Source: a virus
Direction: 5' to 3' (one strand)
IMG/VR virus record: IMGVR_UViG_3300048507_000465
Span: 1-64,000 of that record
DNA length: 64,000 nucleotides
Translations under genes and position numbers: made by a program
Shown: one piece after another, positions 6,325 to 46,881 of the stretch
Layout: each line of letters starts with the position of its first letter
How positions within the stretch are numbered: position 1 is the stretch's first letter
Notes under the pieces: generated by a model
Databases searched by the model: none
The model's input: the letters and a program-made list of their open reading frames with translations, nothing else
What the model was told of the DNA's origin: nothing

Positions 6325-6334
6325 GATATATAAT
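6325..6334 (+). promoter_or_regulatory. GATATATAAT late-promoter-like motif, 12 nt before ATG
   Basis: gatatataat-ct-ATG(6337). Confidence 0.7.
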
Positions 6335-6336
6335 CT

Positions 6337-7263
6337 ATGATTATTAAAAATCTTAAATCATTTATTGCTGAACGTGAAGGAGGCTTGCATAAAGTTATTA
6401 TGTGTGTATCTACTGAACTTACAGATTTTAAATACGTTACTGATGATAGCTGTTTTGCAAATCGGTATATGGAATTATTTACTAAAGGTAGTAAACCTAA
6501 AGTAGCTAATTTGCCAGTAATTAACTTTTGTAACATTCATACTAAAACGTTATTAGATGCTGGAACTCCAAAGGAATTAATCTATAATCCCGAAGAGAAA
6601 AAGATGGAAATCGCATCTAAAGTAAAGTGGCACAAAACTCACGCAAATTCAAAGCACGTTCCTAATACAGTTTCTGATGAAAAAGATTTAAATCAGTTAA
6701 AGTTCCCTATCATAGCGAAACCTGATAACAGATATTCAGGCCAGGGTATTATTAAAATAGATACTATTAAAGAAGCTAATGATATGGATCTTTCTGACTT
6801 TGAAGTTTTTAGTGAGAAGATAGACATCGCTGAAGAACATAGAATAATGATGTGGAGGGGTGAGCCTGTTATGTGGGTACAAAGAGTACACGGTAACGAG
6901 GAGACCAAAAAGATGACAAAGAAGAAAGAAGATAAGTTATATTTTAAATATGTCTTAAAGGATTTAAAGAATATGCCAGAAGATTGGCAGGTTGTATTTA
7001 ATGAAATGGCAGACGTTCATAAAGAACTAGACATATATTCAATAGACCTAATGGTTGACACTAAAGGAAAACCTTGGGTAGTAGAGATGTCTTCTGAATT
7101 TGCGCCTCTTTATGGTGTAATGGCACAACTTTACAAAAAAGTCTATCATGATTATTATGGTAAAAAATTAAATCCGAGCGAAGAAGCACAGATAGATATG
7201 TACCAAAAGAAAGATATTGAAAGCACAATTAACTTTGATAAAAAAAGATTTAGTATAGAGTAA
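6337..7263 (+). CDS. ATP-grasp (RimK-like) protein with capsid-targeting-like N-terminus
   Basis: FPIIAKPDNRYSGQGI, EEHRIMM, SIDLMVDTKGKPWVVEMSS; N-terminus MIIKNLKSFIAE. Confidence 0.75.
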   Translation: MIIKNLKSFIAEREGGLHKVIMCVSTELTDFKYVTDDSCFANRYMELFTKGSKPKVANLPVINFCNIHTKTLLDAGTPKELIYNPEEKKMEIASKVKWHKTHANSKHVPNTVSDEKDLNQLKFPIIAKPDNRYSGQGIIKIDTIKEANDMDLSDFEVFSEKIDIAEEHRIMMWRGEPVMWVQRVHGNEETKKMTKKKEDKLYFKYVLKDLKNMPEDWQVVFNEMADVHKELDIYSIDLMVDTKGKPWVVEMSSEFAPLYGVMAQLYKKVYHDYYGKKLNPSEEAQIDMYQKKDIESTINFDKKRFSIE

Positions 7264-7265
7264 TT

Positions 7266-7505
7266 ATGGCTAAAACAGATTATAGATGTATGCAAATATG
7301 TATTTGGTTACACCATATGCATGTAGATCCTATGTTTGATTTTTTAAACGGTAGGATTAAAGAAGCACCTGACTATTATCTTAGCCATGATGTTGTACCA
7401 AGTTCTATTACAGGTGGTTATGTTCAAATCGCACTTTCTTTTGAAGCTTATTCTTTACTAACCTCTACTAAGGACTGGGAAGCTTCTAACGGTTGGATGA
7501 CTTAA
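7266..7505 (+). CDS. Hypothetical protein
   Basis: 79-aa ORF packed directly after the ATP-grasp gene. Confidence 0.65.
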   Translation: MAKTDYRCMQICIWLHHMHVDPMFDFLNGRIKEAPDYYLSHDVVPSSITGGYVQIALSFEAYSLLTSTKDWEASNGWMT

Positions 7506-7515
7506 ACGACAAATT

Positions 7516-7620
7516 ATGAAAAAAAATGAAAGAAAGGATTACCTATTAAACCACAAAGGCAAGAAGTATAAAGCCGATAGTTTTATAGGATTAATCTGGA
7601 AGTTTTTAAGAAACAAATAA
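7516..7620 (+). CDS. Small hypothetical protein (34 aa, not in track)
   Basis: MKKNERKDYLLNHKGKKYKADSFIGLIWKFLRNK*; fills the gap before the terminator. Confidence 0.5.
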   Translation: MKKNERKDYLLNHKGKKYKADSFIGLIWKFLRNK

Positions 7621-8928: not shown

Positions 8929-8994
8929 CAAAATAGTTGCCATAGAATTTTTTTATGTCAATTATTTTTCGTATATTAGTACTGTAACTAAAAA
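8929..8994 (+). promoter_or_regulatory. ~65-bp repeated early-promoter element, copy 1
   Basis: caaaatagttgccatagaatttttttatgtcaattatttttcgtatattagtactgtaactaaaa immediately before ORF 9001. Confidence 0.85.
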
Positions 8995-9294: not shown

Positions 9295-9304
9295 GATATA
9301 TAAT
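9295..9304 (+). promoter_or_regulatory. GATATATAAT late-promoter-like motif
   Basis: Lies 12 nt before the start of a GC-rich hairpin pair, not before an ORF. Confidence 0.65.
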
Positions 9305-9306
9305 AA

Positions 9307-9382
9307 ACGCACATCCACTTAACGGAAGTGCGGGCCCCCGAAATAAACCCGTCGAAGACCTAGTGTTTTCGCGGGTTTTTTT
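9307..9382 (+). ncRNA. Candidate ~76-nt small RNA (two hairpins ending in an intrinsic terminator)
   Basis: Hairpin 1 cgcac-a-tcc-acttaac-gga-a-gtgcg; linker ggcccccgaaat; hairpin 2 aaacccg-t-cgaagac-ctagt-gttttcg-cgggttt plus T-run. GC-rich island with no ORF. Confidence 0.55.
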
Positions 9383-9399
9383 ATTGCAGATATTATGAT

Positions 9400-9409
9400 G
9401 ATATATAAT
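9400..9409 (+). promoter_or_regulatory. GATATATAAT motif, 12 nt before ATG
   Basis: gatatataat-tt-ATG(9412). Confidence 0.7.
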
Positions 9410-9411
9410 TT

Positions 9412-9954
9412 ATGAAGTATATTTTAACATTGGAAAAGTATCAGGCATACTCAGATTTTAAAAGAAGCTGGGGTTCTCCAGTAGAAATGAGAGAGGATGT
9501 AGAGTTTTGTCTTGGTAGACTATTACCTAAAGAAAATATGATAAAATCTATTGACGATCAGTCTAAAGATAAAGGTATTAAATTCTTTGTAGAATTAGAG
9601 TCTGGCGATTACATCCACATGTATAAAACATCTGCATATAGAATGCAACCAGAAGGATGGGAGTACTACTTTAATAAAAAGAAAATAAAATACCAAGAAT
9701 TAAAGAATAAACTAGAAGAAGACTTTATGTCAAAGCTAGAAACATTCTTAAAATACTTTAAGTCTTATGATTTTTACTATCAATATATTGATGATGGTAG
9801 ACAGTGGGAAGCTGCAAAGAGAAACAATAAAGTAATTGTAGATATGTATAATAACTTGTCAAATAACGAAAAGAAACAAGCTAAAAAACAAATAGTAAAA
9901 CACTTTAAATCTAAAGAGCTTAAGCCTCAAGTAGATCAGGTGTTTCCAAATTAA
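9412..9954 (+). CDS. Hypothetical protein, putative virion-internal (MKYILTLE N-terminus)
   Basis: 180-aa ORF behind the late motif; N-terminus of the shared MK(H/Y)I..E family. Confidence 0.75.
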   Translation: MKYILTLEKYQAYSDFKRSWGSPVEMREDVEFCLGRLLPKENMIKSIDDQSKDKGIKFFVELESGDYIHMYKTSAYRMQPEGWEYYFNKKKIKYQELKNKLEEDFMSKLETFLKYFKSYDFYYQYIDDGRQWEAAKRNNKVIVDMYNNLSNNEKKQAKKQIVKHFKSKELKPQVDQVFPN

Positions 9955-9959
9955 TAAAT

Positions 9960-10232
9960 ATGAAGCATATAAAACTTTTTGAAGATTTTGCTAGTGACAA
10001 TCCAGATCTAGAAAGATCTAGGCAATTCCAAGGTAGTATAGAAGACCTACACTCATGGATGAGTCGTAAGGCAAAAGAGACTGGCCATTCAGGTGAAACA
10101 AATCCATATAAAGATACTATAATGGTAAATGGCCCATATAAAGGATCGAAGGATGAGACATTACCTTATCAAGATTTTCAAAATGGAAAGTCAGACTTAA
10201 TTAAGAATAGACATGGACGACAAGATAGCTAA
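9960..10232 (+). CDS. Hypothetical protein, putative virion-internal (MKHIKLFEDF)
   Basis: 90-aa ORF with the shared N-terminal motif. Confidence 0.75.
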   Translation: MKHIKLFEDFASDNPDLERSRQFQGSIEDLHSWMSRKAKETGHSGETNPYKDTIMVNGPYKGSKDETLPYQDFQNGKSDLIKNRHGRQDS

Positions 10233-11426: not shown

Positions 11427-11427
11427 T

Positions 11428-11628
11428 ATGCTAATAGTAAAATTAGAGAAGAAAACAAATATCGAAAAGGCACTTAAGCAATTAAAATCTAAAGTTATTA
11501 GAACAAAGCAGCTTAAAAATCTTAGGGATAGAAAACATTTTACCAAAAAGTCGGAAAAGCAGCGTTTACAAAAGAGTAAGGCTATTTATATACAGAAGTT
11601 AAAAACCGACGAAGAATTAAATTCTTAA
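11428..11628 (+). CDS. rpsU: Phage-encoded ribosomal protein bS21
   Basis: MLIVKL..NIEKALKQLKSKV..TKQLKNLRDRKHFTKKS..R.QKSKAIYIQ; 66-aa basic protein of Bacteroidota bS21 type. Confidence 0.9.
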   Translation: MLIVKLEKKTNIEKALKQLKSKVIRTKQLKNLRDRKHFTKKSEKQRLQKSKAIYIQKLKTDEELNS

Positions 11629-19867: not shown

Positions 19868-19877
19868 GATATATAAT
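19868..19877 (+). promoter_or_regulatory. GATATATAAT motif, 12 nt before ATG
   Basis: gatatataat-aa-ATG(19880), immediately after a terminator. Confidence 0.72.
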
Positions 19878-19879
19878 AA

Positions 19880-20560
19880 ATGAAGCATATTAAATCAAAA
19901 GCTATATTTGAAAGATATACAAAACTAGATTCTATCTCTAATAAACTATTAGGTGATTGCTTTAGACAGTGGGTATTAGATTTTAAGAACGGTAAAAAAT
20001 CTTCTAGCTACTCATTTGAAGTACAGAATCCAGGGTTAACATTTGACTTAAACTGCTCTATCTATTTTAAAGGTAAAGGATTTGAGGTCCTAAACTCTAC
20101 TGGAGCTGATGGTAGAGATGAAGACGATGATGGTGATTGGCAAGATCCATTTATTAATGTAGACTTTGCTTGTAACCCAGATTGGTTACCTACTTATTGG
20201 GAAGAGATTTACTTTGTATTAGCAGATGTCTTAAGACATGAGATCGAACACATTACTCAAGATGGTATTGATATTGGTAATTATAGAAAGGGTAAACCTA
20301 ATGAACCAGATGATATGATGAGAATGATGATTAATAATGGTATGTTATCTAAGATGTATTATTTACTACTACCTAAAGAAGTGGATGCAAATTTACAAGG
20401 CTTAAGATTTGAGGCTAAGAAGAGAGGTGAGAAGACCATTGATGCTGTAAATAGATACTTAGACTCAAAAGAAGAGATGGGAGAGATAAATAGTAAAGAA
20501 AGAGCAGAAGTCCTAGTTAAATGGGAAGCTCGTGCAAAACAATTAGGATTTAAACTATGA
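19880..20560 (+). CDS. Putative zincin metallopeptidase-like protein (HExxH)
   Basis: LRHEIEHITQ plus downstream EVDA; N-terminus MKHIKSKAIFE. Confidence 0.65.
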   Translation: MKHIKSKAIFERYTKLDSISNKLLGDCFRQWVLDFKNGKKSSSYSFEVQNPGLTFDLNCSIYFKGKGFEVLNSTGADGRDEDDDGDWQDPFINVDFACNPDWLPTYWEEIYFVLADVLRHEIEHITQDGIDIGNYRKGKPNEPDDMMRMMINNGMLSKMYYLLLPKEVDANLQGLRFEAKKRGEKTIDAVNRYLDSKEEMGEINSKERAEVLVKWEARAKQLGFKL

Positions 20561-20847: not shown

Positions 20848-21200
20848 AGCATTTAATTCATTTTAATGACTTTGTTTTAGAGAACAGAAAAAATAAACCC
20901 AATATTAAGAAAAAGGTTAAAAAGATTAATAAGGTTATTAATAAGCAGTATGATAAAATAGAAAAAGAAACTGCTAGGGCTAAAGAGTTAGCATCAAAAC
21001 CTGATGTAACTGATAAAATGTCGGCTACTCTATCTAGAATGAAAGTACAACTAGCTCAAGCAGAAGCTCAGAAACAAGCTGTTAGAAAAAATGTGGAAAT
21101 TAAAAAAGCTCAGATTAGAACTGCTAAAGATCAAGCTAAATCAGGTGATGAATTAGAAAAGAAAGCTAAAGAAACTAAAAAAGAAGAGTCTGATAAATAA
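20844..21200 (+). CDS. Basic coiled-coil protein, putative virion-internal (MKHLIHFNDFVLE)
   Basis: K-rich helical protein; shared N-terminal motif. Confidence 0.75.
   Translation: MKHLIHFNDFVLENRKNKPNIKKKVKKINKVINKQYDKIEKETARAKELASKPDVTDKMSATLSRMKVQLAQAEAQKQAVRKNVEIKKAQIRTAKDQAKSGDELEKKAKETKKEESDK
21192..21200 (+). promoter_or_regulatory. GATAAATAA late motif, 12 nt before ATG
   Basis: gataaataac-ct-ATG(21204). Confidence 0.6.
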
Positions 21201-21203
21201 CCT

Positions 21204-22880
21204 ATGAAGTATATTCAAACTCTTACTGAAAAGGGAAAGCTTAAATGGCAAGACTCTGATGCGCCGGATGCTAATGGTAGATTTAAAGACTTAAGTCCTA
21301 AAGATCTAGCAGCATGGTTAATTAAAACCAGAAAGGGTGATATGAAAAAGATTAGTGGTTCACTAAGTCAACAAGTTGCATTTAATAAAAACGACGATCC
21401 TGAATACGCAAAGAAAATGGATAAGACTAGAACAGAAGTCTACAAGCAAATGGATAGAGAAGATCTATTAGAATCTGTCTTAAACGAAGAGGATTCATAT
21501 AACGATTATCCAGCTGCTGCAAAGAAGAATGCACAGATGGCTATTGATTGGAAAGAGAAGTATGGTAGAGATGAAGTACCTGCTGGGACTCCAGTTGGTT
21601 GGGCAAGAGCTCATCAATTAGCTAAAGGTGAAAAGATCTCAGCAGATACTGTAAAGAGAATGTCTGCATTTAATAGACACAGAAAAAATTCATCAATTGC
21701 ACCAGAACATAAAGACGAACCTTGGAAAGATAATGGCTATGTAGCTTGGTTAATCTGGGGTGGCGACGAAGGTGTTGATTGGGCAATTGAAAAATCAAAA
21801 GAAATAGACGCTATGAAAGAGTCAAAACAAATGAAGTACATTAAACCACTTAACGAAAGAGCTAAACACACATCAACTGATTTTTCTAAACCAGGTAACG
21901 ATGGTGATATTTACTTTTCAAAAAGAGAAGGTGACGCAGTCGGCGTTAGATTAGGAGATAAATTACAAATGATTTATGTTTTTCAAGAAGAACCTAAATT
22001 AGGAAGGATTCAAAAGTCAGATAAACGTTGGGAAAACATGGGTCCAGCTTCTGAAGAACTTTTAATTGATTTAAGAGGTAGAGAAGAAGGTAAAATCTTA
22101 TTTAAGTTTGTTTCTACACTTGAAGAATCAGTTAATGAAGGTAAGATGCCGAAGAAATATATTGGCAACGATGAGATAGTCTATCTTAAAACTAAAGAGG
22201 ATTCAAGAGGTGCTCATTACAACCTTTACTACAAAGGGCACGATATTGATAAAGGTGGTCGTAGGTTTGGTAGTGAAAAAGAGCTAGAAGATTTTGCAGC
22301 TAATTATATTTTATCTAACCAATTGTATAAGAAACTAAGGTATGAAGATTCAATACCTTTACCAGAGTCTGTTAATGAAAGTCTTGGTTCTTATGAATAT
22401 AATAAGTGGATTAAAGAGAATGGTAAAATTAAATACCCTAAATGGGTTACAGTAACTCGTAAAGAAATTATTAAAAAGGGATTAATGGATTCAGTATATG
22501 ATTCTGAATCTCACAACATGTCTATTTGGATTAACTCTTTAGGTAAGAATTTCTTTGTAATTAACGCTGACTCAAAGAAGAGAGAAAAAGAGTTTGGTAA
22601 AAACGGTTCTGCATTTATTAATGCATATTACAATGATATAACTGGATATACCGCTTTTGCATGGGAAGCTGCTACAATTTGCCTAGAACTTATTAAACAC
22701 ATAGAGGACAGAATTGCTAATGGGGAGGAATATGAACCGGCGTACTATTTAGCTAAAGAATATTTTAATAATTTTGGGATGGATACTAAAAGAAGTAGAG
22801 TATTTGATTCTACAGTTAAAAAGCTAAGTAATTATATGGCTGATAATAATCTTGATTCTATGGATTATATGAATAGGTAA
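21204..22880 (+). CDS. Multi-module putative virion-internal polyprotein with repeated ES(V/L)NE linkers
   Basis: MKYIQTLTE...LLESVLNE...MKESKQMKYIKPLNE...LEESVNE...PESVNES separate unrelated segments. Confidence 0.75.
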   Translation: MKYIQTLTEKGKLKWQDSDAPDANGRFKDLSPKDLAAWLIKTRKGDMKKISGSLSQQVAFNKNDDPEYAKKMDKTRTEVYKQMDREDLLESVLNEEDSYNDYPAAAKKNAQMAIDWKEKYGRDEVPAGTPVGWARAHQLAKGEKISADTVKRMSAFNRHRKNSSIAPEHKDEPWKDNGYVAWLIWGGDEGVDWAIEKSKEIDAMKESKQMKYIKPLNERAKHTSTDFSKPGNDGDIYFSKREGDAVGVRLGDKLQMIYVFQEEPKLGRIQKSDKRWENMGPASEELLIDLRGREEGKILFKFVSTLEESVNEGKMPKKYIGNDEIVYLKTKEDSRGAHYNLYYKGHDIDKGGRRFGSEKELEDFAANYILSNQLYKKLRYEDSIPLPESVNESLGSYEYNKWIKENGKIKYPKWVTVTRKEIIKKGLMDSVYDSESHNMSIWINSLGKNFFVINADSKKREKEFGKNGSAFINAYYNDITGYTAFAWEAATICLELIKHIEDRIANGEEYEPAYYLAKEYFNNFGMDTKRSRVFDSTVKKLSNYMADNNLDSMDYMNR

Positions 22881-22930
22881 CATATAATAAAATATTAGCA
22901 AGATATATAAAAAAACAAAGAAATTAAAAT

Positions 22931-24187
22931 ATGGCTGTCGATCATACTAGAACTATAACTGTCACACCTGCTGGATCAAACTATACGGTAGTATCAGATG
23001 CTGCGATGGAATCTGGAGTTCAATGGGTTTCTACTACTAAAACTACTGATAATAATGGTGTTGCAGATGTTTGGACTATTACAATACAACAAAATACATC
23101 TAGTGGTAGAGTTGCTACAATTACAGCGACACATAGCAATAATAATACTGATACTATAACTGTTAACCAGGCTGGAGTTAATCCGGATAATACTGCTCCT
23201 GTTATTACATTACTAGGAGATAGTTCAATAAGTGTTGATGTTGGTGCGTCTGACTGGATCGACGATGGTGCTACCGCCGTTGATGAAACTGATGGAGATA
23301 TTTCTAATAATATACAAGTTGTAGATAATGTAGATCTTAACACAATAGGAGTTTATTCAGTTACATATAATGTAAATGATGCTGCCGGAAATCCTGCAGT
23401 AGAAGTTGTAAGAACTGTAAATGTTGTTGCTCAAACAATTGATGTACAATGGCAATTAATACCATTTAATTTAACTGGTGCATATATTAGCTTAACAGAT
23501 GGCGGAGCGGAGTGGCAAGGTAGTCCTAGTCAAACAACAAGCGTTGCAAGCGGGGGAAGTCATACACAGTTTTTTTATGCAGTTCCAAATAATGGAAAAG
23601 TATTTAATACTACGTCGGATGTTCAATTTCAATCAGGAGGTGCTCAGGTAAGTACTTTAAAAACTGCAAATGGAAGTATTAAAATAGAATTAATATTAAA
23701 CAATGTTACTTCAAATGTTGTATGGAGTGAAAATATTTCAGGTACTGCGTATACAATACCTACAGCGGGTGCTATGGCTTTTAGAGAATTAACAAGTTCA
23801 GGCGGTACAAGTGTCGGAACTTATACTGGAGGTCAAGTTACTAATAGTGTTAGAAATTATCAATGGATTAATAATACAGGTACTGAAAATAATAATCAAG
23901 CTTTATTGATTAATCTAGAAGATGCTGGTGGAATTGATTTAACATGGGATCCTACAGAAACTAATGCACATAATTTAGCAGGATATGTTTATCTATCAAC
24001 AAGCGCAGATGGTAGTACTGTTGATAATTCTACTATTTTAAATACTAATGAATGGATTCATAATGTTAGTTTAAGTAATTCAGATGGAACTAATTCTACT
24101 GGAGACTTTCATGCCTCGTTTATTTTTGACGATGGTGATGATGGAACTATAAATCCAAATAACCAAACATTAAATAATCAAAATTAA
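22931..24187 (+). CDS. Ig-like virion decoration/fibre protein (BACON-like + DUF5011-like domain)
   Basis: RVATITATH...TITVNQAG; DNTAPVITLLGD...DDGATAVDETDGDIS...YSVTYNVNDAAGN..VEVVRTVNV; GATATATAA at 22902. Confidence 0.8.
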   Translation: MAVDHTRTITVTPAGSNYTVVSDAAMESGVQWVSTTKTTDNNGVADVWTITIQQNTSSGRVATITATHSNNNTDTITVNQAGVNPDNTAPVITLLGDSSISVDVGASDWIDDGATAVDETDGDISNNIQVVDNVDLNTIGVYSVTYNVNDAAGNPAVEVVRTVNVVAQTIDVQWQLIPFNLTGAYISLTDGGAEWQGSPSQTTSVASGGSHTQFFYAVPNNGKVFNTTSDVQFQSGGAQVSTLKTANGSIKIELILNNVTSNVVWSENISGTAYTIPTAGAMAFRELTSSGGTSVGTYTGGQVTNSVRNYQWINNTGTENNNQALLINLEDAGGIDLTWDPTETNAHNLAGYVYLSTSADGSTVDNSTILNTNEWIHNVSLSNSDGTNSTGDFHASFIFDDGDDGTINPNNQTLNNQN

Positions 24188-26386: not shown

Positions 26387-26388
26387 AT

Positions 26389-31172: not shown

Positions 31173-31226
31173 CATATTAGTGTATTATATTTCACGGATA
31201 TATATAAAAAATAAAAAAGATACTAC

Positions 31227-32978
31227 ATGCCCTTTTTATTACAAAATGAATATGATGTTACAAATCCGATAACAGGTGTTTCAAATCATGTATATGAATA
31301 CTTAGATGTTGATACCAGAGCTGTCGTTAAAACTACAGAAAAAAAGACTGATGTAGTTGAAGAAGATCCTGCTGAAGCAGAGGAACCAACACCCGCAGGT
31401 ACTACAACCTTTATTGAAGATGGAGAGGGTGCCGGTAGCTCAATATATGGGGATGCCGCCACAGGTTCTAGGACATATAAAATTAAAGATCCTAAAAAAG
31501 AAATAAACGCCGGAGATGGTGTTAAATCTTTATATAATAAATGGTCTTTACACTCATATAAGAATACTGCCAAAGGAACTCAAAGAGGTAAGAATGATTA
31601 TCAAAACTATAACAAAACTGTTATGGATGGTAATGACGATAATATATTAAATCCTACTGCTAGAAGAATTGTACAATATGCTTCGGATAATGGTGGTTTA
31701 GGATATAATTATAGCTTTAGTGATTTTATACAAACAGAACACTACGGCCAAATTTCAAACGAATACTTAATTACATTAAGAAGATTTGCATATCCTATAC
31801 AGGATGATATTATGAATGTACAGGGGCTGGATAGTAAAGGCAATCCTATAGATTTAGGTCAGCCCGATTTAGCTAGGTGTGTAACCTGGATGTCGCCTGC
31901 ATTAGGTAATGATATGAAAGAAATCTTAAAGTTTGGTACTGAATTTCCATGGAAAGAAGTAGAGTCGGAAATTCAAAAAGTAGCTGGTAATGCTAAAAAA
32001 AGAGGTAAGCTAGGAGAAATGATGGATGGGTCCTCATTAGGTAGAGCAGTTGAAGCAGGTCTTAATGGGTATAGTGCAGCTCAAGCTGAAACTATTAGAG
32101 ATAAAGGTGCTGGTTTTGACCCAATGGGAGAAACTTACCCAAATAAAGTATTTGGTCCTTTAAATGTTATTAAGAAAGTTTTATCAAGAGAGCAAGGCTT
32201 AAACTTTAATAGTGAATTTAACTTAACGTTTCACTATGATTTAAGAGGTTTCTTTAATACATCACCAAAGGTCGCATTCATGGATACACTGTCGAACGTT
32301 TTAGCATTGACATATAATAATGCTCCTTTCTGGGGAGGTGCTGTTAGATATACTGGAAGTGGCTCTGTAGGTAAACCTTTTGGCGATTTTGACAAATTAA
32401 AAAACGGAGATTATGCAGGGTTTATGGGTAGTTTAGCTACTCAATTAAAATCTTCAATGGGAGCTGCATTTGATGATGTAGGTAAAGCTGCTAAAGGACT
32501 TATGAATGGTAAGGGTATTAATGCATTAGGTGACTCTAAAATTATGGATAATATTATTGGAGGTGGACTAATGAAATTAATGAATGGTCCACAAGGTGGT
32601 GCTGTAATTAATGCATTCTTAACTGGAGATCCAACAGGGCAATGGCATATGACTGTAGGTAATCCTATGAATCCTATTATGGTTTGTGGAAATTTAGCTT
32701 TACAATCTTCTAGTGTAGAATTTGAAGGACCTTTAGGTTATGAAGGATTCCCAAGTAAAATGAAAGTTACGGTTGCTTTAAAACCTGCAAGACCTAGGGA
32801 TAAAGGTGAAATTGAAAGTATGTTTAATGCTGGTAGGGGTAGAGTTTATTTACAACCAGAAGTTGAAGGTTCAGTAGATCTAGACAAAATTATGGATGTA
32901 TCTGCTTATGGAAATGCAGATAGAGGTAAACTAACTAAAGGTTTTGCAACAAAATTATCAGACTTTAACGCAGGCTAA
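31227..32978 (+). CDS. Putative baseplate/tail-tube initiator protein (gp48/gp54-like position)
   Basis: First gene of the structural block (GATATATA at 31197); WHMTVGNPMNPI..GNL...FEGPLG..FPSKMKVTVAL C-terminus; precedes the LysM wedge gene. Confidence 0.55.
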   Translation: MPFLLQNEYDVTNPITGVSNHVYEYLDVDTRAVVKTTEKKTDVVEEDPAEAEEPTPAGTTTFIEDGEGAGSSIYGDAATGSRTYKIKDPKKEINAGDGVKSLYNKWSLHSYKNTAKGTQRGKNDYQNYNKTVMDGNDDNILNPTARRIVQYASDNGGLGYNYSFSDFIQTEHYGQISNEYLITLRRFAYPIQDDIMNVQGLDSKGNPIDLGQPDLARCVTWMSPALGNDMKEILKFGTEFPWKEVESEIQKVAGNAKKRGKLGEMMDGSSLGRAVEAGLNGYSAAQAETIRDKGAGFDPMGETYPNKVFGPLNVIKKVLSREQGLNFNSEFNLTFHYDLRGFFNTSPKVAFMDTLSNVLALTYNNAPFWGGAVRYTGSGSVGKPFGDFDKLKNGDYAGFMGSLATQLKSSMGAAFDDVGKAAKGLMNGKGINALGDSKIMDNIIGGGLMKLMNGPQGGAVINAFLTGDPTGQWHMTVGNPMNPIMVCGNLALQSSSVEFEGPLGYEGFPSKMKVTVALKPARPRDKGEIESMFNAGRGRVYLQPEVEGSVDLDKIMDVSAYGNADRGKLTKGFATKLSDFNAG

Positions 32979-33802: not shown

Positions 33803-33812
33803 TAATTAAGAA

Positions 33813-35324: not shown

Positions 35325-35328
35325 GAAA

Positions 35329-35338
35329 GATAAATAAT
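35329..35338 (+). promoter_or_regulatory. GATAAATAAT late motif, 12 nt before ATG
   Basis: gataaataat-at-ATG(35341). Confidence 0.65.
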
Positions 35339-35340
35339 AT

Positions 35341-36645
35341 ATGGCTGATTTTACAAAAGGTATTAATGAATTTAGAAAGGGTACACGTCTTCGTAAAATA
35401 AACGAAGATCCTACGTATCTTAGTTTCTTCTTTATGTTCGATGACCAGAGTAGAATGGAGTCTCCTCTTTTATCGGGAGCTGCTAGAGATTATTTAACTA
35501 AAGTGCTTAGATCAGATGAGGGTAATAAATATGCTCAAAATCTAGATAACTTTAAAAAAGTACTTTTTAAAATTAATAAAGAACTGCCTTGGTTTTGGCA
35601 AACAGTTTCCGGGATTGATGCTGCATTGACATACCAAAAAATGATAGAGCCGTGGTGGGGTGCTGCAGATAATAAACTTGAAATTGAATGCTTAGAGGAA
35701 AATATAGAACTAACAGCATTTGGTTTAATGGATTTATATAAGAGAGCTTGTTTTGATTTTACAAGATGGGTTGAAGTAATACCACATAATCTTAGACATT
35801 TTACAATGTACGTTTATATAACTGAAGTTAGAACAATACAACAAGATACTAACGCTCCTAACTTAGGTTTAAGAGATAATCCAGAAAGTGGTAATAATTC
35901 TTCTAGGTCAGCTCCGCCAGAAGGCAAGATTAAGGGAATAAACCCTGAAATGTCTTTAACTGCTAAACCATATATTAAATTAAAATTTGAACATTGTGAG
36001 TTTGATATTGATAGTATCGCATCAATGTTTGCGGATATAAATAAAAACCCTGAGGCTGTAAAACCTAAAATTGCTATTAAGTGGAATAGTGTTAAACAGG
36101 TAGAACAAAAGCTAGGTGATAATTTAATTGTAGAAGAAGATAATAATACAATATCGGATGCAATACCTACTCCTGAAAAATATAATACAACACCACTTGA
36201 CCCTAAAGATTATGTACAAGGTAAATTAGATAGTGCTGTATCTGGTTTTACAGATGCTGCTAAATCTAAATTTGGTAATCTAAAAGATGGTATTGCAGGG
36301 GGTAATAATAGTGAAATAGGTAATGCGTTTGGAGACTCTACCGGCGGATTAACAAGTGCTGCATTAAACGCAGCTGAAGAAAAGCTTTTATCTAAGTTAT
36401 TTATGGGTAATGTCCATGGTGTTAATTTAGGTAATATACAAAACGCTATTAGATCTGGAAGTATAAACGCATTAGGTAGTTTAGTTGGAGATTTAATAGG
36501 AGGCTTTGGAAGTGGATCGTCTAGTGTTGGCGAAAAGGTATATAGCAGTACATTTAATAATGATGAATTAGGAGATGAAAGTGTTTACGAGCCGGGTGTT
36601 GATTCATCTGCTGATGGTAACTTAAACGATAACGTACATGAATAA
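35341..36645 (+). CDS. Putative tail-tube-related/baseplate structural protein
   Basis: Structural block context; WFWQTVSGID, IECLEE, FTMYVYITEVR beta-rich N-half. Confidence 0.5.
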   Translation: MADFTKGINEFRKGTRLRKINEDPTYLSFFFMFDDQSRMESPLLSGAARDYLTKVLRSDEGNKYAQNLDNFKKVLFKINKELPWFWQTVSGIDAALTYQKMIEPWWGAADNKLEIECLEENIELTAFGLMDLYKRACFDFTRWVEVIPHNLRHFTMYVYITEVRTIQQDTNAPNLGLRDNPESGNNSSRSAPPEGKIKGINPEMSLTAKPYIKLKFEHCEFDIDSIASMFADINKNPEAVKPKIAIKWNSVKQVEQKLGDNLIVEEDNNTISDAIPTPEKYNTTPLDPKDYVQGKLDSAVSGFTDAAKSKFGNLKDGIAGGNNSEIGNAFGDSTGGLTSAALNAAEEKLLSKLFMGNVHGVNLGNIQNAIRSGSINALGSLVGDLIGGFGSGSSSVGEKVYSSTFNNDELGDESVYEPGVDSSADGNLNDNVHE

Positions 36646-37354: not shown

Positions 37355-37356
37355 TT

Positions 37357-39686: not shown

Positions 39687-39695
39687 ATTATTTAG

Positions 39696-39760: not shown

Positions 39761-39835
39761 TAGGAAAAGCCAGCTTTTTTAACGCTGCAGCTAAAATAAA
39801 GGTGATATATATTATGCAGCATTAATTAAAAACAT

Positions 39836-41104
39836 ATGATCGCAAAAAAATTATTTAAGTGGAATCGATTTGACTTACCTATAAAGCATTTATTTTTAAA
39901 GTTTTATAGTAAAGGTATTAAATCTGATTTTGCTGAAAACGCATATAAGGAGCATTTAAAGTTATGGAATAATTTTAAAGAATACGGCAATCCTAATAAA
40001 AACACATACGATGCTTTTAAATCTGATTTTATTAATATTTTTAATGATATAAAAAATAATAATTTTAATTGGGAAAAGTCACCGGTAGTAATAGATAATA
40101 ATGATTTCTTACTAAATGGAGCACATAGAGCTGCATCCGCGAGTTTATTAGAAAAGCATGTTGAGTGTAAAATCGGAAGTGAGTTAAATAGAGATGGTCA
40201 AAAAATATGTGACTATAGAATGTTTAATAACTTAAACCTTTCTCAGCAGTATAAAGACGCTGCTGCATTAGAACTTGCTAGACTTAATTCCGAAGAACAT
40301 CTTATTATTAGTTTATTTCCAGCAGCGACACATAGTAGAACTGTAGTAGAAAATATTATTTCTAAATACTGTGGAATTTCATATAAAAAGGATATATGGC
40401 TTAATAATACAGGTGCGTTTAATTATATGCTTCAACTGTATAAAGGAGAAGCATGGGCAGGAGGTTGGTCAAATAATTTTGCTGGATTTAGAGAGAAGGC
40501 AAGATTATGTTTTACTAATGAAACTACTCCAATGGTAGTTTACTTAGTAAATTTATCTGATTTAAAAATCGCTAGACAACTTAAAGAAGAAATACGAAAA
40601 GTGTATAATATCGGAAACCATTCAGTTCATATTAATGATACTCCTGAAGAAACCTTACGTTTAGCAAGATGTTTATTTAATGAAAATAGTATTCATTTTT
40701 TAAACAATGCAGAATTAAAAAATTATACAAATTTCTTAAATCAATTAGATTATTTTAAAAACAATATAAACGAAAATAATTTAGATATTGAAGATTATTG
40801 TATTACTGCAAGTTCTGTTCTTTCAATATATGGTTTAAGAGAAGGTAACGACATAGATTATATCCACCACGATAACATAAAAATAGAAGGCAACTCTATG
40901 GTTAGTAGCCACAATACTTACGGTGAAAACCTATATCCATATAAATATGATGAAATAATATACAATCCTCAACATCACTTTTATGCGGGTGGTATAAAAT
41001 TCACATCTTTAGATATTGTTAAAAAACTTAAAGAAAAAAGAGGCGAAGAAAAAGACGTAATCGACATAAAATTGATTGATAATTTTTTAAAGAAAATAGG
41101 TTGA
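39836..41104 (+). CDS. Hypothetical enzyme: ParB/Srx-like N-terminus and nucleotidyltransferase-like C-terminus
   Basis: SPVVID...LLNGAHRAAS; SSVLSIYGLREGNDIDY; GATATATA at 39804. Confidence 0.55.
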   Translation: MIAKKLFKWNRFDLPIKHLFLKFYSKGIKSDFAENAYKEHLKLWNNFKEYGNPNKNTYDAFKSDFINIFNDIKNNNFNWEKSPVVIDNNDFLLNGAHRAASASLLEKHVECKIGSELNRDGQKICDYRMFNNLNLSQQYKDAAALELARLNSEEHLIISLFPAATHSRTVVENIISKYCGISYKKDIWLNNTGAFNYMLQLYKGEAWAGGWSNNFAGFREKARLCFTNETTPMVVYLVNLSDLKIARQLKEEIRKVYNIGNHSVHINDTPEETLRLARCLFNENSIHFLNNAELKNYTNFLNQLDYFKNNINENNLDIEDYCITASSVLSIYGLREGNDIDYIHHDNIKIEGNSMVSSHNTYGENLYPYKYDEIIYNPQHHFYAGGIKFTSLDIVKKLKEKRGEEKDVIDIKLIDNFLKKIG

Positions 41105-41149
41105 TATATAATATGTTACTAAGATAGTATAACTTTTAAATAAAAATAA

Positions 41150-42442
41150 ATGTCAGACAAAAAAAGAAGAAGAATTGGCAATGACGCCAATACAGTAGTT
41201 GTAACAGATCCTACTTCAGTTACACAAGAAGAAGCTAACACAAACACTAAAGTTAGCGAAGATCAAGAATCTAAAAACCCACACGCAGAATTTTACGACG
41301 AAAATGGAGAGTTTCTTTGGGAGAAATACGAAGGTACTTGCCCGACTCATTATAGGAAACCAAACCCCCACATTAGGACAAATAACGGAGATAAGGTATT
41401 TTCAAGAGAACCGTATGCACAAGAGCTATACGATAAAATGGAAGCGCACGGCCAGGATATTAAGCCTAATGTTTTTGTAGGTGAAATTCACGCAGGTATA
41501 ATATATGCAATTGATAGTACTTGGATTACTGTTGATATTGGATATAGAGAGTTAGTCTATGTAAAGTTTGGAAAAGAATCTGAAGAAGTTCGACAGTCTT
41601 CTGTTGGTGATGAAACTGCAGTTTTAATTACAGAAACTAAAGGTACATTAACTGGAAGTATTTCAGGTGGTGTTAGACAGAAAACTTTTATGGATCTTAG
41701 AGATGCAATTGAAGAGGGTAGAACTGCATGGATTGGTAAGGTCGATAATATGATTGAGAACGGAGGATATACCGTAAGTGTACAAGGAATTAAATGCTTT
41801 ATGCCAGGTTCTTTAGCAGGTATTAATAAGCTTTCTAATTTTGAATCTATAATTGGAGAAGAATTATATGTAGTTCCGGTTAGTTTTTCACCGGACAGGG
41901 GTACAATAGTAGTATCACATAGGAAATATTTACAGGCGTTAATTCCTACTGAAATAGAAAATTTAAAGCAAACTTTAGAAGAAGAAAAGACTGGTAAAGT
42001 AACAGGTACTGCTAAATACGGAGTATTTGTTGAATTTAGCAAATGCTTAACTGGTATGATTCATAATAATGATTTAGATGAAGAAACTTTAAGTAAGTTT
42101 AAATCAAGAGAAATTAAGCCTGGGGACTCTATTAATTTTAAGGTTAAAGATATTGTTAGTAATACTAAAATAACATTAACTCAAAAGGAAGTTGTAAATG
42201 TTAATCCATGGTTAAATATATCACAAAAATATACAATACCATCTACAGTTGAAGCTATTGTAAAGTCTAAAAAAGATTATGGTTTATTCATAAATATAGA
42301 AGATGGCATTACTGGATTGTTACATGTTAGTGAACTAACACCAGAAACTATGTCGGTATTTAGTTCTGGTGATAAAATTACTGTACAGATTACAAGAATA
42401 GACGAAGATGCTATGAAAGTATTTTTAAAGATGCCTCAATAA
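41150..42442 (+). CDS. rpsA: Phage-encoded ribosomal protein bS1-like protein (4 S1 domains + N-terminal extension)
   Basis: ITVDIGYRE (D1); GGYTVSVQGIKCFMPGS...IVVSHRKYL (D2); GKVTGTAKYGVFVEF..LTGMIH (D3); KDYGLFINIEDGITGLLHVSEL (D4). GATATATAAT at 41103. Confidence 0.85.
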   Translation: MSDKKRRRIGNDANTVVVTDPTSVTQEEANTNTKVSEDQESKNPHAEFYDENGEFLWEKYEGTCPTHYRKPNPHIRTNNGDKVFSREPYAQELYDKMEAHGQDIKPNVFVGEIHAGIIYAIDSTWITVDIGYRELVYVKFGKESEEVRQSSVGDETAVLITETKGTLTGSISGGVRQKTFMDLRDAIEEGRTAWIGKVDNMIENGGYTVSVQGIKCFMPGSLAGINKLSNFESIIGEELYVVPVSFSPDRGTIVVSHRKYLQALIPTEIENLKQTLEEEKTGKVTGTAKYGVFVEFSKCLTGMIHNNDLDEETLSKFKSREIKPGDSINFKVKDIVSNTKITLTQKEVVNVNPWLNISQKYTIPSTVEAIVKSKKDYGLFINIEDGITGLLHVSELTPETMSVFSSGDKITVQITRIDEDAMKVFLKMPQ

Positions 42443-42493
42443 CTATCTAAGAAGAGCTTGATATATATTGAAAGATAATATCATACTCTTAAT

Positions 42494-43807
42494 ATGCAAA
42501 AATTAAACCAAAAGTCAGAAAGAAGCTCGATCCTTAATGGTAGTCAGATAGGGATCGAGTTTGAATTCTATTCTAATTTAGAACTGGATGAGACTAAAGA
42601 GTCTTTATCTAAACTTTTAAATAGAAAAATTAAGCTAGAAGATAAAGCTCATTCTGATTTTCAACCAAGCGCAGAAGTTTTTAAAATGGAGCCGGACATG
42701 TCTGGTGGTATTGGGCTAATTGAATTAGTTACAGGTCCTATGCCGTATAGGAGTGCTAGGGTTGTTATTATGAAAATGTTAGGATGGATTAGAGAGAATG
42801 GTTATACAACTGACCGTGCCTCTATCCACTTAAATATGTCTTTTAACCCAGATTACTTAGAAGACATTGATATGGTTTCTAAAATGAATATTTTAAAGTT
42901 TATTTTAGAATTTGATGAAAAGAGAGTCTATAAATATTTCCCAAATAGAGAGAATTCGACATACGCTAAATCTATTAAATGGGTTATGCCAAAAAACGAA
43001 GCGTTCTATTACAATGAGAACTTAATTAGTTCAGATAACTTTACATTTGCTAATACTAAATATTATGGTATTAACTTTGAAAAGGCACAAAAGAATTATT
43101 TAGAGTTTAGATATATTGGGGGTAAAGATTATGAAAAAAGGTATGATGATATTATGCATCTTGCCGAATCTTTTATTATGGCTGTTTGGAGATCTTGTTA
43201 TAGTCCAGTGTTTACGACTGAGAATAAAATAGAATTAAAAAGGATTTTAGATAAAAATAGACCTCTTATGGAAATGTTAAAAGACTATTCCGCCGTAAAT
43301 AAATATTGGCCTAAGATAAATATATTAGTAGATTTACAAGATGCTGAACAGATTATTAGAGTACAATGGAATAGGTTTAAGAAAAAAGTCTTAGAATTAT
43401 TATCAGAAGGATCTTTAGAATCTGGAACTATTAACTATGACTCCGATTACTCTGTTGTTCAAGTTAAAGATGGTATATTTAAAACTGCTTACTTATTAAA
43501 TGACTTTGAATTTATAGATTGTGAAATCTCAGGTAACATTGAAAACTCGGAAATTTACGGGGGCAAGGTTACAGGAGCACAAATACTTAGATCAAATTTA
43601 TATAAAAGTGTTGAAATTATGGATTCAAAAGTAGAATCATCATACGTACATGGAAGTTGTACTTTAAAAAATTGTTATGTGTTTGGCAAAGACGGTATTT
43701 TTAAAGGTAAAATGGAAGGTGGTATTTTTAGAGAAGGCGGCGTGGGACCTCATGCTAGATTTTCTGATGAGACTGAAGTAATTGTAAGTAAAAAAATTAA
43801 AACATAA
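42494..43807 (+). CDS. Putative amidoligase (COOH-NH2 ligase type 2) with C-terminal beta-helix-like region
   Basis: IGIEFEF, EPDMS, ELVTGP, SIHLNMS, KYYGINF, YLEFRYIGG; GATATATA at 42460. Confidence 0.72.
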   Translation: MQKLNQKSERSSILNGSQIGIEFEFYSNLELDETKESLSKLLNRKIKLEDKAHSDFQPSAEVFKMEPDMSGGIGLIELVTGPMPYRSARVVIMKMLGWIRENGYTTDRASIHLNMSFNPDYLEDIDMVSKMNILKFILEFDEKRVYKYFPNRENSTYAKSIKWVMPKNEAFYYNENLISSDNFTFANTKYYGINFEKAQKNYLEFRYIGGKDYEKRYDDIMHLAESFIMAVWRSCYSPVFTTENKIELKRILDKNRPLMEMLKDYSAVNKYWPKINILVDLQDAEQIIRVQWNRFKKKVLELLSEGSLESGTINYDSDYSVVQVKDGIFKTAYLLNDFEFIDCEISGNIENSEIYGGKVTGAQILRSNLYKSVEIMDSKVESSYVHGSCTLKNCYVFGKDGIFKGKMEGGIFREGGVGPHARFSDETEVIVSKKIKT

Positions 43808-43808
43808 A

Positions 43809-44657
43809 ATGAGTGAAATTAGAAGCGGTACTAGCGGTTTAGATAGTCCAAGAAACTTTGGTGGTAATTGTTTAAACGATTTCTTAGCAGAAATAGGTGA
43901 CGACTTAACAGGTGCTTGTATGGTTCCTGTAAATTTACCGCAAAAAGAAATTATGAATATAGTTAAAAGAGCTAAGAAATGGTTCTATAAACAATATGAA
44001 GATTCTGTTCAAGAAAATTACTACCACGTACCGAAAGAAGTATTTGAATCTGATTACTTTAAAAAGAATAGATGCTTAAATTTACCAGGTCCTAGCGGGG
44101 TTAATGGTGAAGAAGGTGGCGCTGTATATTCTGTGTTTGGGGTTTATGATACTGGTTCTGGTTTTAATGGAACTGGCTCTGGGTTAGATTTAAGATTTCA
44201 AGGCGGACAAGACTTTGCTTTAGAAAAAATGTTATTTAGAGGAATGTACGATGGCTCTGGCCCAGCTGAAGCAGCAGAAGAACTACAATATTACGTTTTA
44301 AACGCTTCTATGGCAGATCTATCTAGACAAATTTTAGAGAACCCTATTAGTTTTCAATATGCCAGATTGAACGGTAAGTTAAAAATAATGGGAGATACTC
44401 CAAAGGGAGACTTAATATTACAGGTATACGAAACTATATCTGATTGCGCACTTTATTCTGATGAAATATTTTTTAGATATGTAAGTGCTAGGGTAAAACA
44501 ATCATTAGGTGCTAAGTTAGGCATCTTTAAATTTGCATTACCTGGTAATGTAGAGTTTGATTATGACGCTATTAAAGACATGGGAGACACCGAGTTAGAG
44601 TCGATAATAGAAGAAATTAAAGGCGACGAGGGCGTGGATTGGATGTTCCACTCATAA
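43809..44657 (+). CDS. gp13: Neck/head-tail adaptor protein, T4 gp13-like
   Basis: C-terminal YVSARVKQSLGAKLGIFKFALPGNVEFDYDAI..G..ELESIIEEI resembles the gp13 LPGGV end. Confidence 0.7.
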   Translation: MSEIRSGTSGLDSPRNFGGNCLNDFLAEIGDDLTGACMVPVNLPQKEIMNIVKRAKKWFYKQYEDSVQENYYHVPKEVFESDYFKKNRCLNLPGPSGVNGEEGGAVYSVFGVYDTGSGFNGTGSGLDLRFQGGQDFALEKMLFRGMYDGSGPAEAAEELQYYVLNASMADLSRQILENPISFQYARLNGKLKIMGDTPKGDLILQVYETISDCALYSDEIFFRYVSARVKQSLGAKLGIFKFALPGNVEFDYDAIKDMGDTELESIIEEIKGDEGVDWMFHS

Positions 44658-44677
44658 TAAGCCGAATACATATATAA

Positions 44678-45034
44678 ATGGATTTTTATATTAAAGACAT
44701 AGGTGACCCAAATTACCAATCGAGTACAGTTCAATCGAATGGTGAGGTAGAACAATTAACACAACAAATTGAAACTATCTTATTTACAAATAGAAGAGAT
44801 ATTTTAGGATCTCCTGGGTTTGGTTGTAATTTAGAAGATATGGTTTACTCTATGGGTATGAATGACTATCAAATTAGATCTACAATTACAGATCAGATAT
44901 TTGCGTATTGTCCATTAGCTACAAAATATAATGTAAATGTAAATGTCAACTTTTTTAAAGGAGAAGTAAGGGATATTGCATTTATTGATATTACTGTGAA
45001 TAATAAGTATTTAATTCAAGTAAATCTAAGATAA
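44678..45034 (+). CDS. gp25: Baseplate wedge subunit gp25-like
   Basis: QIETILFTNRRDILGSPGFGCNLEDMVY...ITDQIFAYCP. Confidence 0.85.
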   Translation: MDFYIKDIGDPNYQSSTVQSNGEVEQLTQQIETILFTNRRDILGSPGFGCNLEDMVYSMGMNDYQIRSTITDQIFAYCPLATKYNVNVNVNFFKGEVRDIAFIDITVNNKYLIQVNLR

Positions 45035-45039
45035 AAACG

Positions 45040-45049
45040 GATAAATAAA
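45040..45049 (+). promoter_or_regulatory. GATAAATAAA late motif, 12 nt before ATG
   Basis: gataaataaa-ta-ATG(45052). Confidence 0.6.
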
Positions 45050-45051
45050 TA

Positions 45052-46881
45052 ATGGCAGAATTAAAATTTTTATCAAGCGTCAGAGCTACCGCGAATCAAA
45101 TTAAAACAGATTCGCGTACATATATCTCAAGGGTATACAAAAGAGCTGATACGCTTTTTACCGAGGCATCACCATTTGCTCAAATAATTTCAGTATTTTC
45201 TGAGTTATATGAGTTAATAATGTTTTATATAGAGGATGCGCTCGTAGAACAAAACATATATACAGCACAACAGGCAGAATCCATATATGGAATGTCTAGG
45301 CTTACTGGACATGATGCAACTAGGGGTTTTGCAGCTACTGGAGAAATTCAATTTAGATGGAAGCCAGGAGCAGACTTAAGTAAAATAGCTGGAACTGGTT
45401 TAAATATAGATTCTAGGGCAGAATTAAAATTTGATGTAAATGGTTTAACATATACATTACTTACGTCTAAAGATAGATTTAGATTAGAAAAATCTAATAT
45501 GACTCAAATTACTACTCCAATTATACAAGGTCAGTTTGAATCTCAAACTTTTACTGGAACTGGTGAAAACTTACAGTCCTTTAATATACAAACAGTATCT
45601 TTAACTGATCATTCTAAAGTTAGCGTATCTGTTAATGGAGAACGATGGGCTAAACACGAGTCGTTATATGATTTATTAAATAATGAAAAGGGCTATTTAT
45701 TAAAAACAGGAATTTCAGGTGGAATAGATTTGTATTTTGGCAACGGTGCGTTCGGCGCAGTTCCAATTGCAGGGTCAGCAATAGAAGTAGAATATGTTAA
45801 ACATGTTGGATTTTCTGGAAATTTAGATGACGGGCAAGATCTTACTGTAAAATGGGATGCGGATGGTACAGATTCATTAGGTAACGAACATGACCTAAAT
45901 GAATATTTAGATGTTACTATTACTTCATCACCAAAGATGGGAGCAGATAGAGAGTCTACTGATTTTACTAAAATTATGACACCTCTCGCTAGTAAATCTT
46001 TTGTTTTAGCAACACCAGATAATTATGAATACTTCTTATCAAGATATGGTTTATTCTCGTATATAGATGCCTATAATACTACATCAGACCAATATTTAGA
46101 TGATGATAATGTTATCTACATATTTGCAGTGCCGGATGTAAAAAGAAAATTAGCAAAGTCACAGGATTATTTTTCTATCCCGGAGAACGAAATGTTTTTT
46201 GACCAAAATGAATATGATAAAATGTCTAAAGTATTACAGGATAGTGGACAACAAATGGTAACTACTGAAGTTGTGTTTGTTCAGCCTAAGGTTAGAAAAT
46301 ATAGTATGGATATTAATGTTAGATATTTTGAAGGGTTTACAAAACAAGAAATATTTACAGATATTAGAGCGAAGGTAAGTGATTATCTTTTAAATATTAC
46401 TAGAAGGGATAAATTACCAAAGTCTGATATTATTTATATTTTAGAAGAGATAGAAGGCGTGGATGCTGTTAACGTTAGATTTATATCTGAGACTGAAGAA
46501 ACTGCTAGAAGGTTGGGTTATTTTGAATCTAAAACTATTTCTGTAGTTCCACAAGAGCCTGTTATTTTAGAAGAGATTGGAAATGGAAAGCAAAAGTATA
46601 TTTTCTTTAAGCAAGTTGAAGAGGTTCAAACCGTAAAGGTCGATGATACGACACAGATACCATATACAGTAGCAGGTTTAGATGAGTGGGGAGATATTAT
46701 TATGGAGAAAGAAGAAGTTGCAGTATTTAGAGGTGGATGGCAAGATAGAGATGGTGACGATATAGTAGATGAAGCATTAATAAATGCTGAAGCTGCACTA
46801 AGTGTTAATTTTGACGAAACACCAGTACCTAGAACTATTTATACTAGAGTTCAGGCTGGAAATAGAAAAGCATTGAAGTAA
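45052..46881 (+). CDS. gp6: Baseplate wedge subunit gp6-like (baseplate J family)
   Basis: EQNIYTAQQAESIYGMSRLTGH, LYFGNG.FG..P, GADRES, LATPDNYE, EEIEGVDAV; follows gp25. Confidence 0.85.
   Translation: MAELKFLSSVRATANQIKTDSRTYISRVYKRADTLFTEASPFAQIISVFSELYELIMFYIEDALVEQNIYTAQQAESIYGMSRLTGHDATRGFAATGEIQFRWKPGADLSKIAGTGLNIDSRAELKFDVNGLTYTLLTSKDRFRLEKSNMTQITTPIIQGQFESQTFTGTGENLQSFNIQTVSLTDHSKVSVSVNGERWAKHESLYDLLNNEKGYLLKTGISGGIDLYFGNGAFGAVPIAGSAIEVEYVKHVGFSGNLDDGQDLTVKWDADGTDSLGNEHDLNEYLDVTITSSPKMGADRESTDFTKIMTPLASKSFVLATPDNYEYFLSRYGLFSYIDAYNTTSDQYLDDDNVIYIFAVPDVKRKLAKSQDYFSIPENEMFFDQNEYDKMSKVLQDSGQQMVTTEVVFVQPKVRKYSMDINVRYFEGFTKQEIFTDIRAKVSDYLLNITRRDKLPKSDIIYILEEIEGVDAVNVRFISETEETARRLGYFESKTISVVPQEPVILEEIGNGKQKYIFFKQVEEVQTVKVDDTTQIPYTVAGLDEWGDIIMEKEEVAVFRGGWQDRDGDDIVDEALINAEAALSVNFDETPVPRTIYTRVQAGNRKALK

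Follow-up and report, generated by a model that had tools for sequence, protein, structure and literature searches.

A GATAWATA late promoter with predicted leaderless starts in uncultured marine T4-like jumbo phages

The DNA analysed here, referred to as the window, comprises the first 64 kb of the 82,016-bp linear IMG/VR viral contig IMGVR_UViG_3300048507_000465, which is estimated to be ~30% complete. Almost all genes of the contig lie on the + strand. The analysis concerns an 8-nt motif, GATAWATA (W being A or T), and its distance d, counted from the motif G to the next gene start. For comparison, 80 related IMG/VR loci were recruited by means of the baseplate protein, and five whole relative contigs (G001–G005; 60–149 kb), whose baseplate proteins are 59–85% identical to that of the window, were fetched. 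The 82-kb contig and these five relatives are collectively called the six genomes.

Motif-bearing sites and their distance to start codons

The motif-bearing sites of the window are listed below with their coordinates, strand and the unit downstream.

6325..6339, + strand: GATATATA, 4 nt and ATG; gene 6337-7263 (308 aa, weakly similar to ATP-grasp proteins), for which a leaderless late start is predicted
9295..9387, + strand: GATATATA and a candidate small RNA of ~80 nt from +12 (9307), with two hairpins
9400..9414, + strand: GATATATA, 4 nt and ATG; gene 9412-9954, 17 nt past a terminator T-run, heading the operon 9412-11628
19868..19882, + strand: GATATATA, 4 nt and ATG; gene 19880-20560, with the end of a terminator hairpin 4 nt before the motif; conserved in G003
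21192..21206, + strand: GATAAATA, 4 nt and ATG; gene 21204-22880, the motif overlapping the stop codon of the upstream gene
22902..22933, + strand: GATATATA, d=29; gene 22931-24187 for an Ig-like domain protein, with a predicted A-rich leader of 17 nt
31197..31229, + strand: GATATATA, d=30; gene 31227-32978, predicted 18-nt leader; conserved in G002–G004
35329..35343, + strand: GATAAATA, 4 nt and ATG; gene 35341-36645
39804..39838, + strand: GATATATA, d=32; gene 39836-41104, predicted 20-nt leader
41103..41152, + strand: GATATATA, d=47; S1-domain gene, predicted 35-nt leader
42460..42496, + strand: GATATATA, d=34; gene 42494-43807
45040..45054, + strand: GATAAATA, 4 nt and ATG; gene 45052-46881, baseplate wedge protein (T4 gp6 / Baseplate_J-like)
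49777..49784, + strand: GATATATA inside gene 47155-49908 at its 3' end, with 138 nt to the next gene; possibly an internal promoter, an uncertain assignment
56155..56205, + strand: GATATATA, d=48; gene for a protein of 2764 aa, predicted 36-nt leader

A sequence-only reading of the window had placed the motif G exactly 12 nt before the ATG of six genes. These six pairs are all present (G at 6325, 9400, 19868, 21192, 35329, and 45040), with every coordinate exact, and the A of each ATG (6337, 9412, 19880, 21204, 35341, and 45052) belongs to the first ATG of a long + strand open reading frame (ORF). The further copies to which it had pointed, at 22902, 31197, 39804, 41103, 42460, and 56155, likewise precede gene starts, by 29, 30, 32, 47, 34, and 48 nt, respectively. 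A seventh exact 12-nt pair lies outside the window at 68758/68770.

The raw number of GATAWATA copies in the window is not above chance (19 against a shuffle mean of 18.2). Their strand and placement are far from random. All 19 copies lie on the + strand and none on the - strand, as do all 24 in the whole contig, and the counts on coding versus other strand in the five relatives are 44/2, 29/2, 27/2, 19/0, and 15/0. In an unbiased screen of the contig, GATATATA ranked as the top 8-mer for intergenic enrichment: 11 of its 15 copies are wholly intergenic, against an intergenic share of the contig of 3.9% (p ~4e-13), and all 15 are located at most 138 nt upstream of a gene start. The GATAAATA copies within genes at 3114, 20485, 26149, 29336, 43315, and 77611, the last of which is outside the window, look random and are ascribed to chance. 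Strand bias, intergenic placement, and the distance distribution described next rule out a chance origin of the motif, which the raw count alone does not.

The histogram of motif-to-ATG distance, chosen beforehand as a check, is sharply bimodal rather than flat, with genes starting either at 12 nt or at 24 nt and beyond. Across the six genomes, GATAWATA stands at d=12 in 27 cases, at d=13–23 in one, and at d=24–70 in 77. The corresponding numbers for control words with one mismatch are 9, 35, and 84; by Fisher tests against these words, the gap at 13–23 has p=7e-8 and the spike at 12 has p=9e-11. As the control words do occupy the 13–23 zone, its emptiness is specific to the motif. A count made without gene calls gives the same picture: of 157 unique motif contexts, 27 have an ATG at offset 12, and no more than 11 have one at any other offset. 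Among motif-linked gene starts, 7 of 17 in the contig and 27 of 105 in the six genomes are predicted to be leaderless, so that probably about a quarter of the late messages begin on the start codon.

The 12-nt arrangement recurs in at least 14 ortholog groups, within which the box and the spacing stay while the flanks and the 4-nt spacer differ. For the baseplate wedge gene at 45052, box and spacing are the same in ~60 relatives, with variable flanks and 4-nt spacer. The orthologue of gene 6337-7263 in G005 also has d=12, and orthologues of gene 35341-36645 carry the variant boxes AATATATA and GATAGATA with the 12-nt spacing unchanged. One orthologue has acquired three additional N-terminal residues and still starts at +12; another has shifted from d=12 to d=24, skipping the empty zone. 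The start codon is ATG in 26 of the 27 cases with d=12, and the single GTG, whose orthologues have d=38–39, is probably a miscalled start. All fetched relatives that have the region upstream of gene 42494-43807 carry an unchanged box there, and the predicted leader length ranges from 28 to 37 nt.

Promoter identity, transcription start and competing explanations

We hold with high confidence that GATAWATA serves as the late promoter in this clade of T4-like jumbo phages, which are marine and uncultured. Its resemblance to T4-type late promoters, suspected from the window alone, is borne out by a gp55-family sigma factor in the relatives, the lack of a -35 element, and the virion genes downstream. 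The gp55 late sigma family (phrog_234) is matched in G001, G002, and G003 with E values from 5e-12 to 6e-10, and the gp55-like protein of one relative has ~127 aa; phrog_254 is the gp33 family in T4. Homologues of gp2, gp4, gp17, gp20, gp21, gp23, gp25, and uvsW are present in the clade, together with gp43, gp44, gp46, and gp47. In the 27 and 77 aligned copies, the 40 nt upstream are without information, and no -35 partner was found there. Compared with the T4 late box TATAAATA, GATAAATA is identical at 7 of 8 bases and GATATATA at 6 of 8.

The genes behind the motif include those of portal gp20, prohead protease gp21, and the baseplate, and some non-virion genes as well (S1, amidoligase-like, and ATP-grasp-like). 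The motif does not stand before the replication genes gp43, gp44, gp46, gp47, and uvsW. For the major capsid gene gp23, the motif is found ~110 nt upstream in G002, and one-mismatch or weaker variants of it in G003 and G001. The ~110-nt leader of this gp23-like gene (~90925-91041 in G002; also in G003 and G001) contains a conserved stretch downstream of the late box, cgacgata..gggtg..caccc, which may be a structured regulatory leader. Apart from this, two ORFs ~4–5 kb apart together encode the gp43-type DNA polymerase in all four relatives covering the region (G001–G004), for example 67868-69274 and 73383-74591 in G002.

The model that we favour, to which we assign a probability of roughly 0.65 on indirect arguments, is that transcription begins 12 nt downstream of the motif G. 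The motif would then be a -10-only box spanning -12 to -5, without a -35 element, and would be read by the host RNA polymerase together with the phage gp55-family sigma. Where an ATG lies at +12, as in six genes of the window and seven of the contig, the late mRNA would start with AUG and be leaderless. Elsewhere the leader would have at least 12 nt and be A-rich, suited to the Shine-Dalgarno-free initiation of Bacteroidota, and leaders of 1–11 nt would be avoided. Such leaders would be too long for recognition of a 5'-AUG and too short for A-rich upstream contacts. In the six genomes, Shine-Dalgarno-like words precede only 8 of 321 genes, and the regions upstream of the starts are A-rich.

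Several features of the copies point to this start. Of 73 unique leadered copies, 68 (93%) have a purine at +12, against a baseline of 61% (p=3.5e-10), and the base there is A in 74% of the tabulated copies, with no such peak at neighbouring positions. Copies with d=12 mostly have a T directly before the ATG, which yields the pyrimidine-purine pair usual at start sites. The box TAnnTTTG of flavobacterial sigma-A promoters has this same register, -12 to -5 (PMC9723704). In five cases with d=12, terminator T-runs end 4–17 nt before the box, leaving no room for another promoter. The exact spacing and the missing leaders of 1–11 nt are explained only by a start on the A of the ATG. The earlier claim that many late transcripts begin at the AUG thus agrees with the bimodal distances and the purine peak, the exact start and leaderless translation being inferred from these patterns. 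If transcription does start at +12, the ATGs seen at motif offset 10 (GATATATAWTATG) in two leadered promoters (39814 and 41113), which open ORFs of only 3–4 codons, are outside the mRNA.

Other observations weigh against this model. The T4 late box TATAAATA is located at -13 to -6 (PMC1524935); with such a register, the first nucleotide of the RNA would be the U of AUG, and the start here must therefore be one base closer. Five of the contig's seven genes with d=12 lie 3–21 nt behind the preceding gene and could also be translated from read-through transcripts. There are rare copies at d=14 (one, in G002) and at d=13 and d=16 (at loci of other relatives). No match to gp55 (phrog_234) was found on the 82-kb fragment, which is ~30% complete, or on G004, and none to the gp45 clamp (phrog_223) in five contigs, all of them fragments, nor in the control, which makes the gp45 search uninformative. 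Four marine RNA-library runs contain small shares of the stretch; their contigs over 31001-51000 are short and of low depth with no molecule starts reported, and no 5' end was seen in them.

The register of T4, the close packing of the five genes, and the rare copies at 13, 14, and 16 nt all suit a late promoter whose start lies elsewhere, either at +13/+14 as in T4 or at heterogeneous positions. The d=12 genes would then be expressed mainly via read-through transcripts, and the fixed spacing would reflect a different constraint on how very short intergenic spacers are packed. We regard this as unlikely, although it is the strongest of the alternatives. A start at +13/+14 would ruin the start codon at 27 promoters without benefit, the empty 13–23 zone and the exact purine peak at +12 would go unexplained, and copies directly after terminators cannot use read-through.

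Alternatively, the box could act in RNA, either as a translation-initiation enhancer at -12 to -5 or as a site at which a phage or host endoribonuclease cuts beside start codons and trims polycistronic RNA. An A/U-rich box beside start codons would befit an organism that does not rely on Shine-Dalgarno pairing. Of the copies near genes, however, three quarters are 24–70 nt from the ATG, some copies stand just behind terminators, and one heads a non-coding hairpin unit. The likeness to TATAAATA and the gp55 sigma in the clade speak for a promoter, too. The A-rich upstream signal of other genes is located at -11 to -18, and G is found at -12 in merely 10% of the genes without the motif, which rules out a general translation signal. 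Taken together, a role in RNA seems quite improbable. Least credible of all is a site that acts in DNA and has nothing to do with expression, such as a nuclease or packaging site or a junction of recombination or of gene cassettes. The location of the box at gene boundaries and its variable presence between orthologues would speak for this; the single-strand orientation with the genes, the fixed ATG distance, the confinement to late genes, and the similarity to T4 late promoters speak against it.

The +12 model returns at the copy at 9295, which had been described as standing 12 nt before a small RNA. The copy is there and hairpins do follow from 9307; the distance itself is circular, as the start of the RNA was defined from the motif. 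The second hairpin of this candidate RNA (9307-9387) is an intrinsic terminator with a T-run (minimum free energy, MFE, -30.9; z -4.2). The candidate belongs to no Rfam family, and no similar sequence was found in G001–G005.

Ribosomal proteins, a second repeat and the genomic setting

Two genes for relatives of ribosomal proteins are found among those behind the motif.

11428..11628, + strand: bS21 gene, 66 aa; final gene of the operon behind the motif at 9400
41150..42442, + strand: four-domain S1-like protein, 430 aa; aligns to domains 1–4 of rpsA models

The bS21 product predicted earlier is confirmed by a PF01165 match above cut-off (43.4 bits versus 27), and its TIGR00030 score is just under the threshold (27.1 bits versus 28.95). 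Its operon (9412-11628) is gap-free, has the d=12 promoter at 9400, and ends with a DnaJ-like co-chaperone gene (10374-11165; J domain and DnaJ C-terminal domain) and the bS21 gene. The same DnaJ-like/bS21 layout is found in G001, whose baseplate protein is 68% identical. Phage bS21 is reported to be expressed late (PMC9723584), and the position of the gene behind a late promoter here agrees with this.

The rpsA product bS1 has six S1 domains in Gram-negative bacteria. What had been called a phage bS1 is an S1 relative with four domains, truncated and far below the rpsA cut-offs: residues 85–429 align to positions 24–374 of the 580 in the best model, NF004952 (domains 1–4 only), with an E value of 6e-47 and 160 bits versus a cut-off of 524. 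More than 120 sequence clusters, from contigs as long as 250 kb, contain the protein at a conserved length of ~430 aa. The promoter of its gene is a leadered one. As bS1 is dispensable only for leaderless mRNAs (PMC10931766), the phage S1 would more plausibly serve A/U-rich leadered messages, if any.

The two proteins had been joined with the promoter into a single takeover system. In such a system, the gp55-type sigma would make many leaderless and very short A-rich-leader mRNAs late in infection. The same promoters would express bS21 and the four-domain S1, which would replace or join the host proteins and shift initiation to phage messages. Three papers on bS21 (PMC9723584, PMC6375957, PMC9976891) contain no link of bS21 to leaderless mRNAs. 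We see little likelihood that promoter and ribosomal proteins form one takeover system, and their coupling to leaderless translation is speculative.

A second, promoter-like repeat, TTTTCGTATATTAGTACT, is present in five identical copies in the window, where 0.01 would be expected by chance.

8966-8983, 14449-14466, 15440-15457, and 16000-16017, + strand: TTTTCGTATATTAGTACT
39706-39723, - strand: TTTTCGTATATTAGTACT

Every copy is located 20–35 nt upstream of a small gene, and each includes a host-type box, TATATTAG (compare TAnnTTTG). The repeat is common to many RNA-library contigs with differing flanks. Judged from its sequence, TTTTCGTATATTAGTACT would be a separate, early-type promoter repeat, and the one clear gene on the minus strand (39273-39686) is predicted to be driven by its minus-strand copy.

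The nearest annotated phages by baseplate protein have hosts in Tenacibaculum, Chryseobacterium, Flavobacterium, and Prevotella, with Sphingomonas phage PAU as an exception, and huge uncultured phages are also among them. Since the nearest phages infect these four genera, the host is likely, though not proven, to be one of the Bacteroidota, probably a marine flavobacterium. A megablast search of 18 kb against GenBank phages gave no match, nor did tRNA and Rfam scans of the 64-kb window. In positions 1-5864, a tail-fibre/collagen-like gene is followed by genes for a 2OG-Fe(II) oxygenase and a glycosyltransferase (PHROG matches). The dCMP deaminase gene starts (26389) 3 nt past a terminator-like hairpin with a T-run (26340-26391); this leaves only the hairpin itself or the DNA upstream of it for the promoter. 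The genes at 9412, 9960, 19880, 20844, and 21204 encode similar N-termini (MKYI../MKHI..), and three of them are behind d=12 promoters.

Comparison with known systems and meaning

The closest parallel is T4 late transcription, with its gp55 sigma, gp33, and gp45 clamp (PMC1524935). Both systems use an 8-bp A/T-rich -10-only box without -35 element, located before virion genes; a gp55-family sigma is found in the relatives, along with T4-like replication and virion genes. Different from T4, the box here begins with G, its commonest form being GATATATA, and would have the register -12 to -5. Late mRNAs of T4 carry leaders with Shine-Dalgarno sequences, whereas about one promoter in four here adjoins the ATG.

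The Thermus phages phiYS40 and P23-45 (reviewed in PMC3594737) also have a phage-specific late promoter class and mRNAs without leaders. In phiYS40, middle and late mRNAs are leaderless and the levels of IF2 and IF3 are altered (PMC3594737), and the idea of a translation apparatus retuned in infection is common to both cases. In contrast to the present phages, phiYS40 has a host of another phylum in which leaderless mRNAs are common, a different promoter type and different polymerase factors, and the retuning goes via initiation factors instead of phage ribosomal proteins; its transcripts were mapped experimentally, while ours are predicted from DNA. In the '-10 region adjacent to ORFs' genes of Deinococcus-Thermus (PMC12340547), a -10 box at a fixed, critical short distance leads to leaderless expression, as is predicted here, but these are cellular genes read with the housekeeping sigma, not a phage late class.

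Bacteroidota phages with bS21 (PMC9723584, PMC6375957, PMC9976891) resemble the present phage in having a predicted late bS21 gene, a large genome, and a probable Bacteroidota host. Here the gene is part of a DnaJ-like operon under a predicted leaderless late promoter, whereas in the lake phages it lies beside capsid genes on the reverse strand. The flavobacterial sigma-A -7 box TAnnTTTG (PMC9723704) is also an 8-nt box for which the same register would hold, yet it differs in sequence, as GATAWATA is without TTTG.

The arrangement was looked for in three more distant phages, Tenacibaculum phage pT24, Sphingomonas phage PAU, and the 462-kb phage LR756500, none of which has an excess of GATAWATA or a GATAWATA-N4-ATG class. 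The top upstream 8-mer in pT24 is a host-type box, TATATTTG, ~30 nt from the starts. The looser pattern ATAWATA-N4-ATG occurs 24 times on one strand of the uncultured phage LR756500.1, versus 11 for a reversed-pattern control, which is a weak hint of a G-less form of the same design in this distant huge-phage relative.

T4-type late promoters and leaderless phage mRNAs have each been known separately. As far as the literature was searched, it is new that a T4-like clade has a quarter or more of its late promoters fused to the start codon, and so is the clean rule that there is either no leader or one of at least 12 nt. The rule improves the annotation of start codons and operons for a very abundant marine phage family. 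The leaderless share of cellular mRNAs in Flavobacterium and Bacteroides is ~4–6% (PMC9723704, PMC7366714). Because the host group is Shine-Dalgarno-free and makes so few leaderless mRNAs of its own, the phage supplies naturally matched messages with and without leaders, in which the start-site choice of the Bacteroidota ribosome can be studied. It also offers a concrete mRNA feature for testing whether phage bS21 redirects ribosomes, as has long been supposed.

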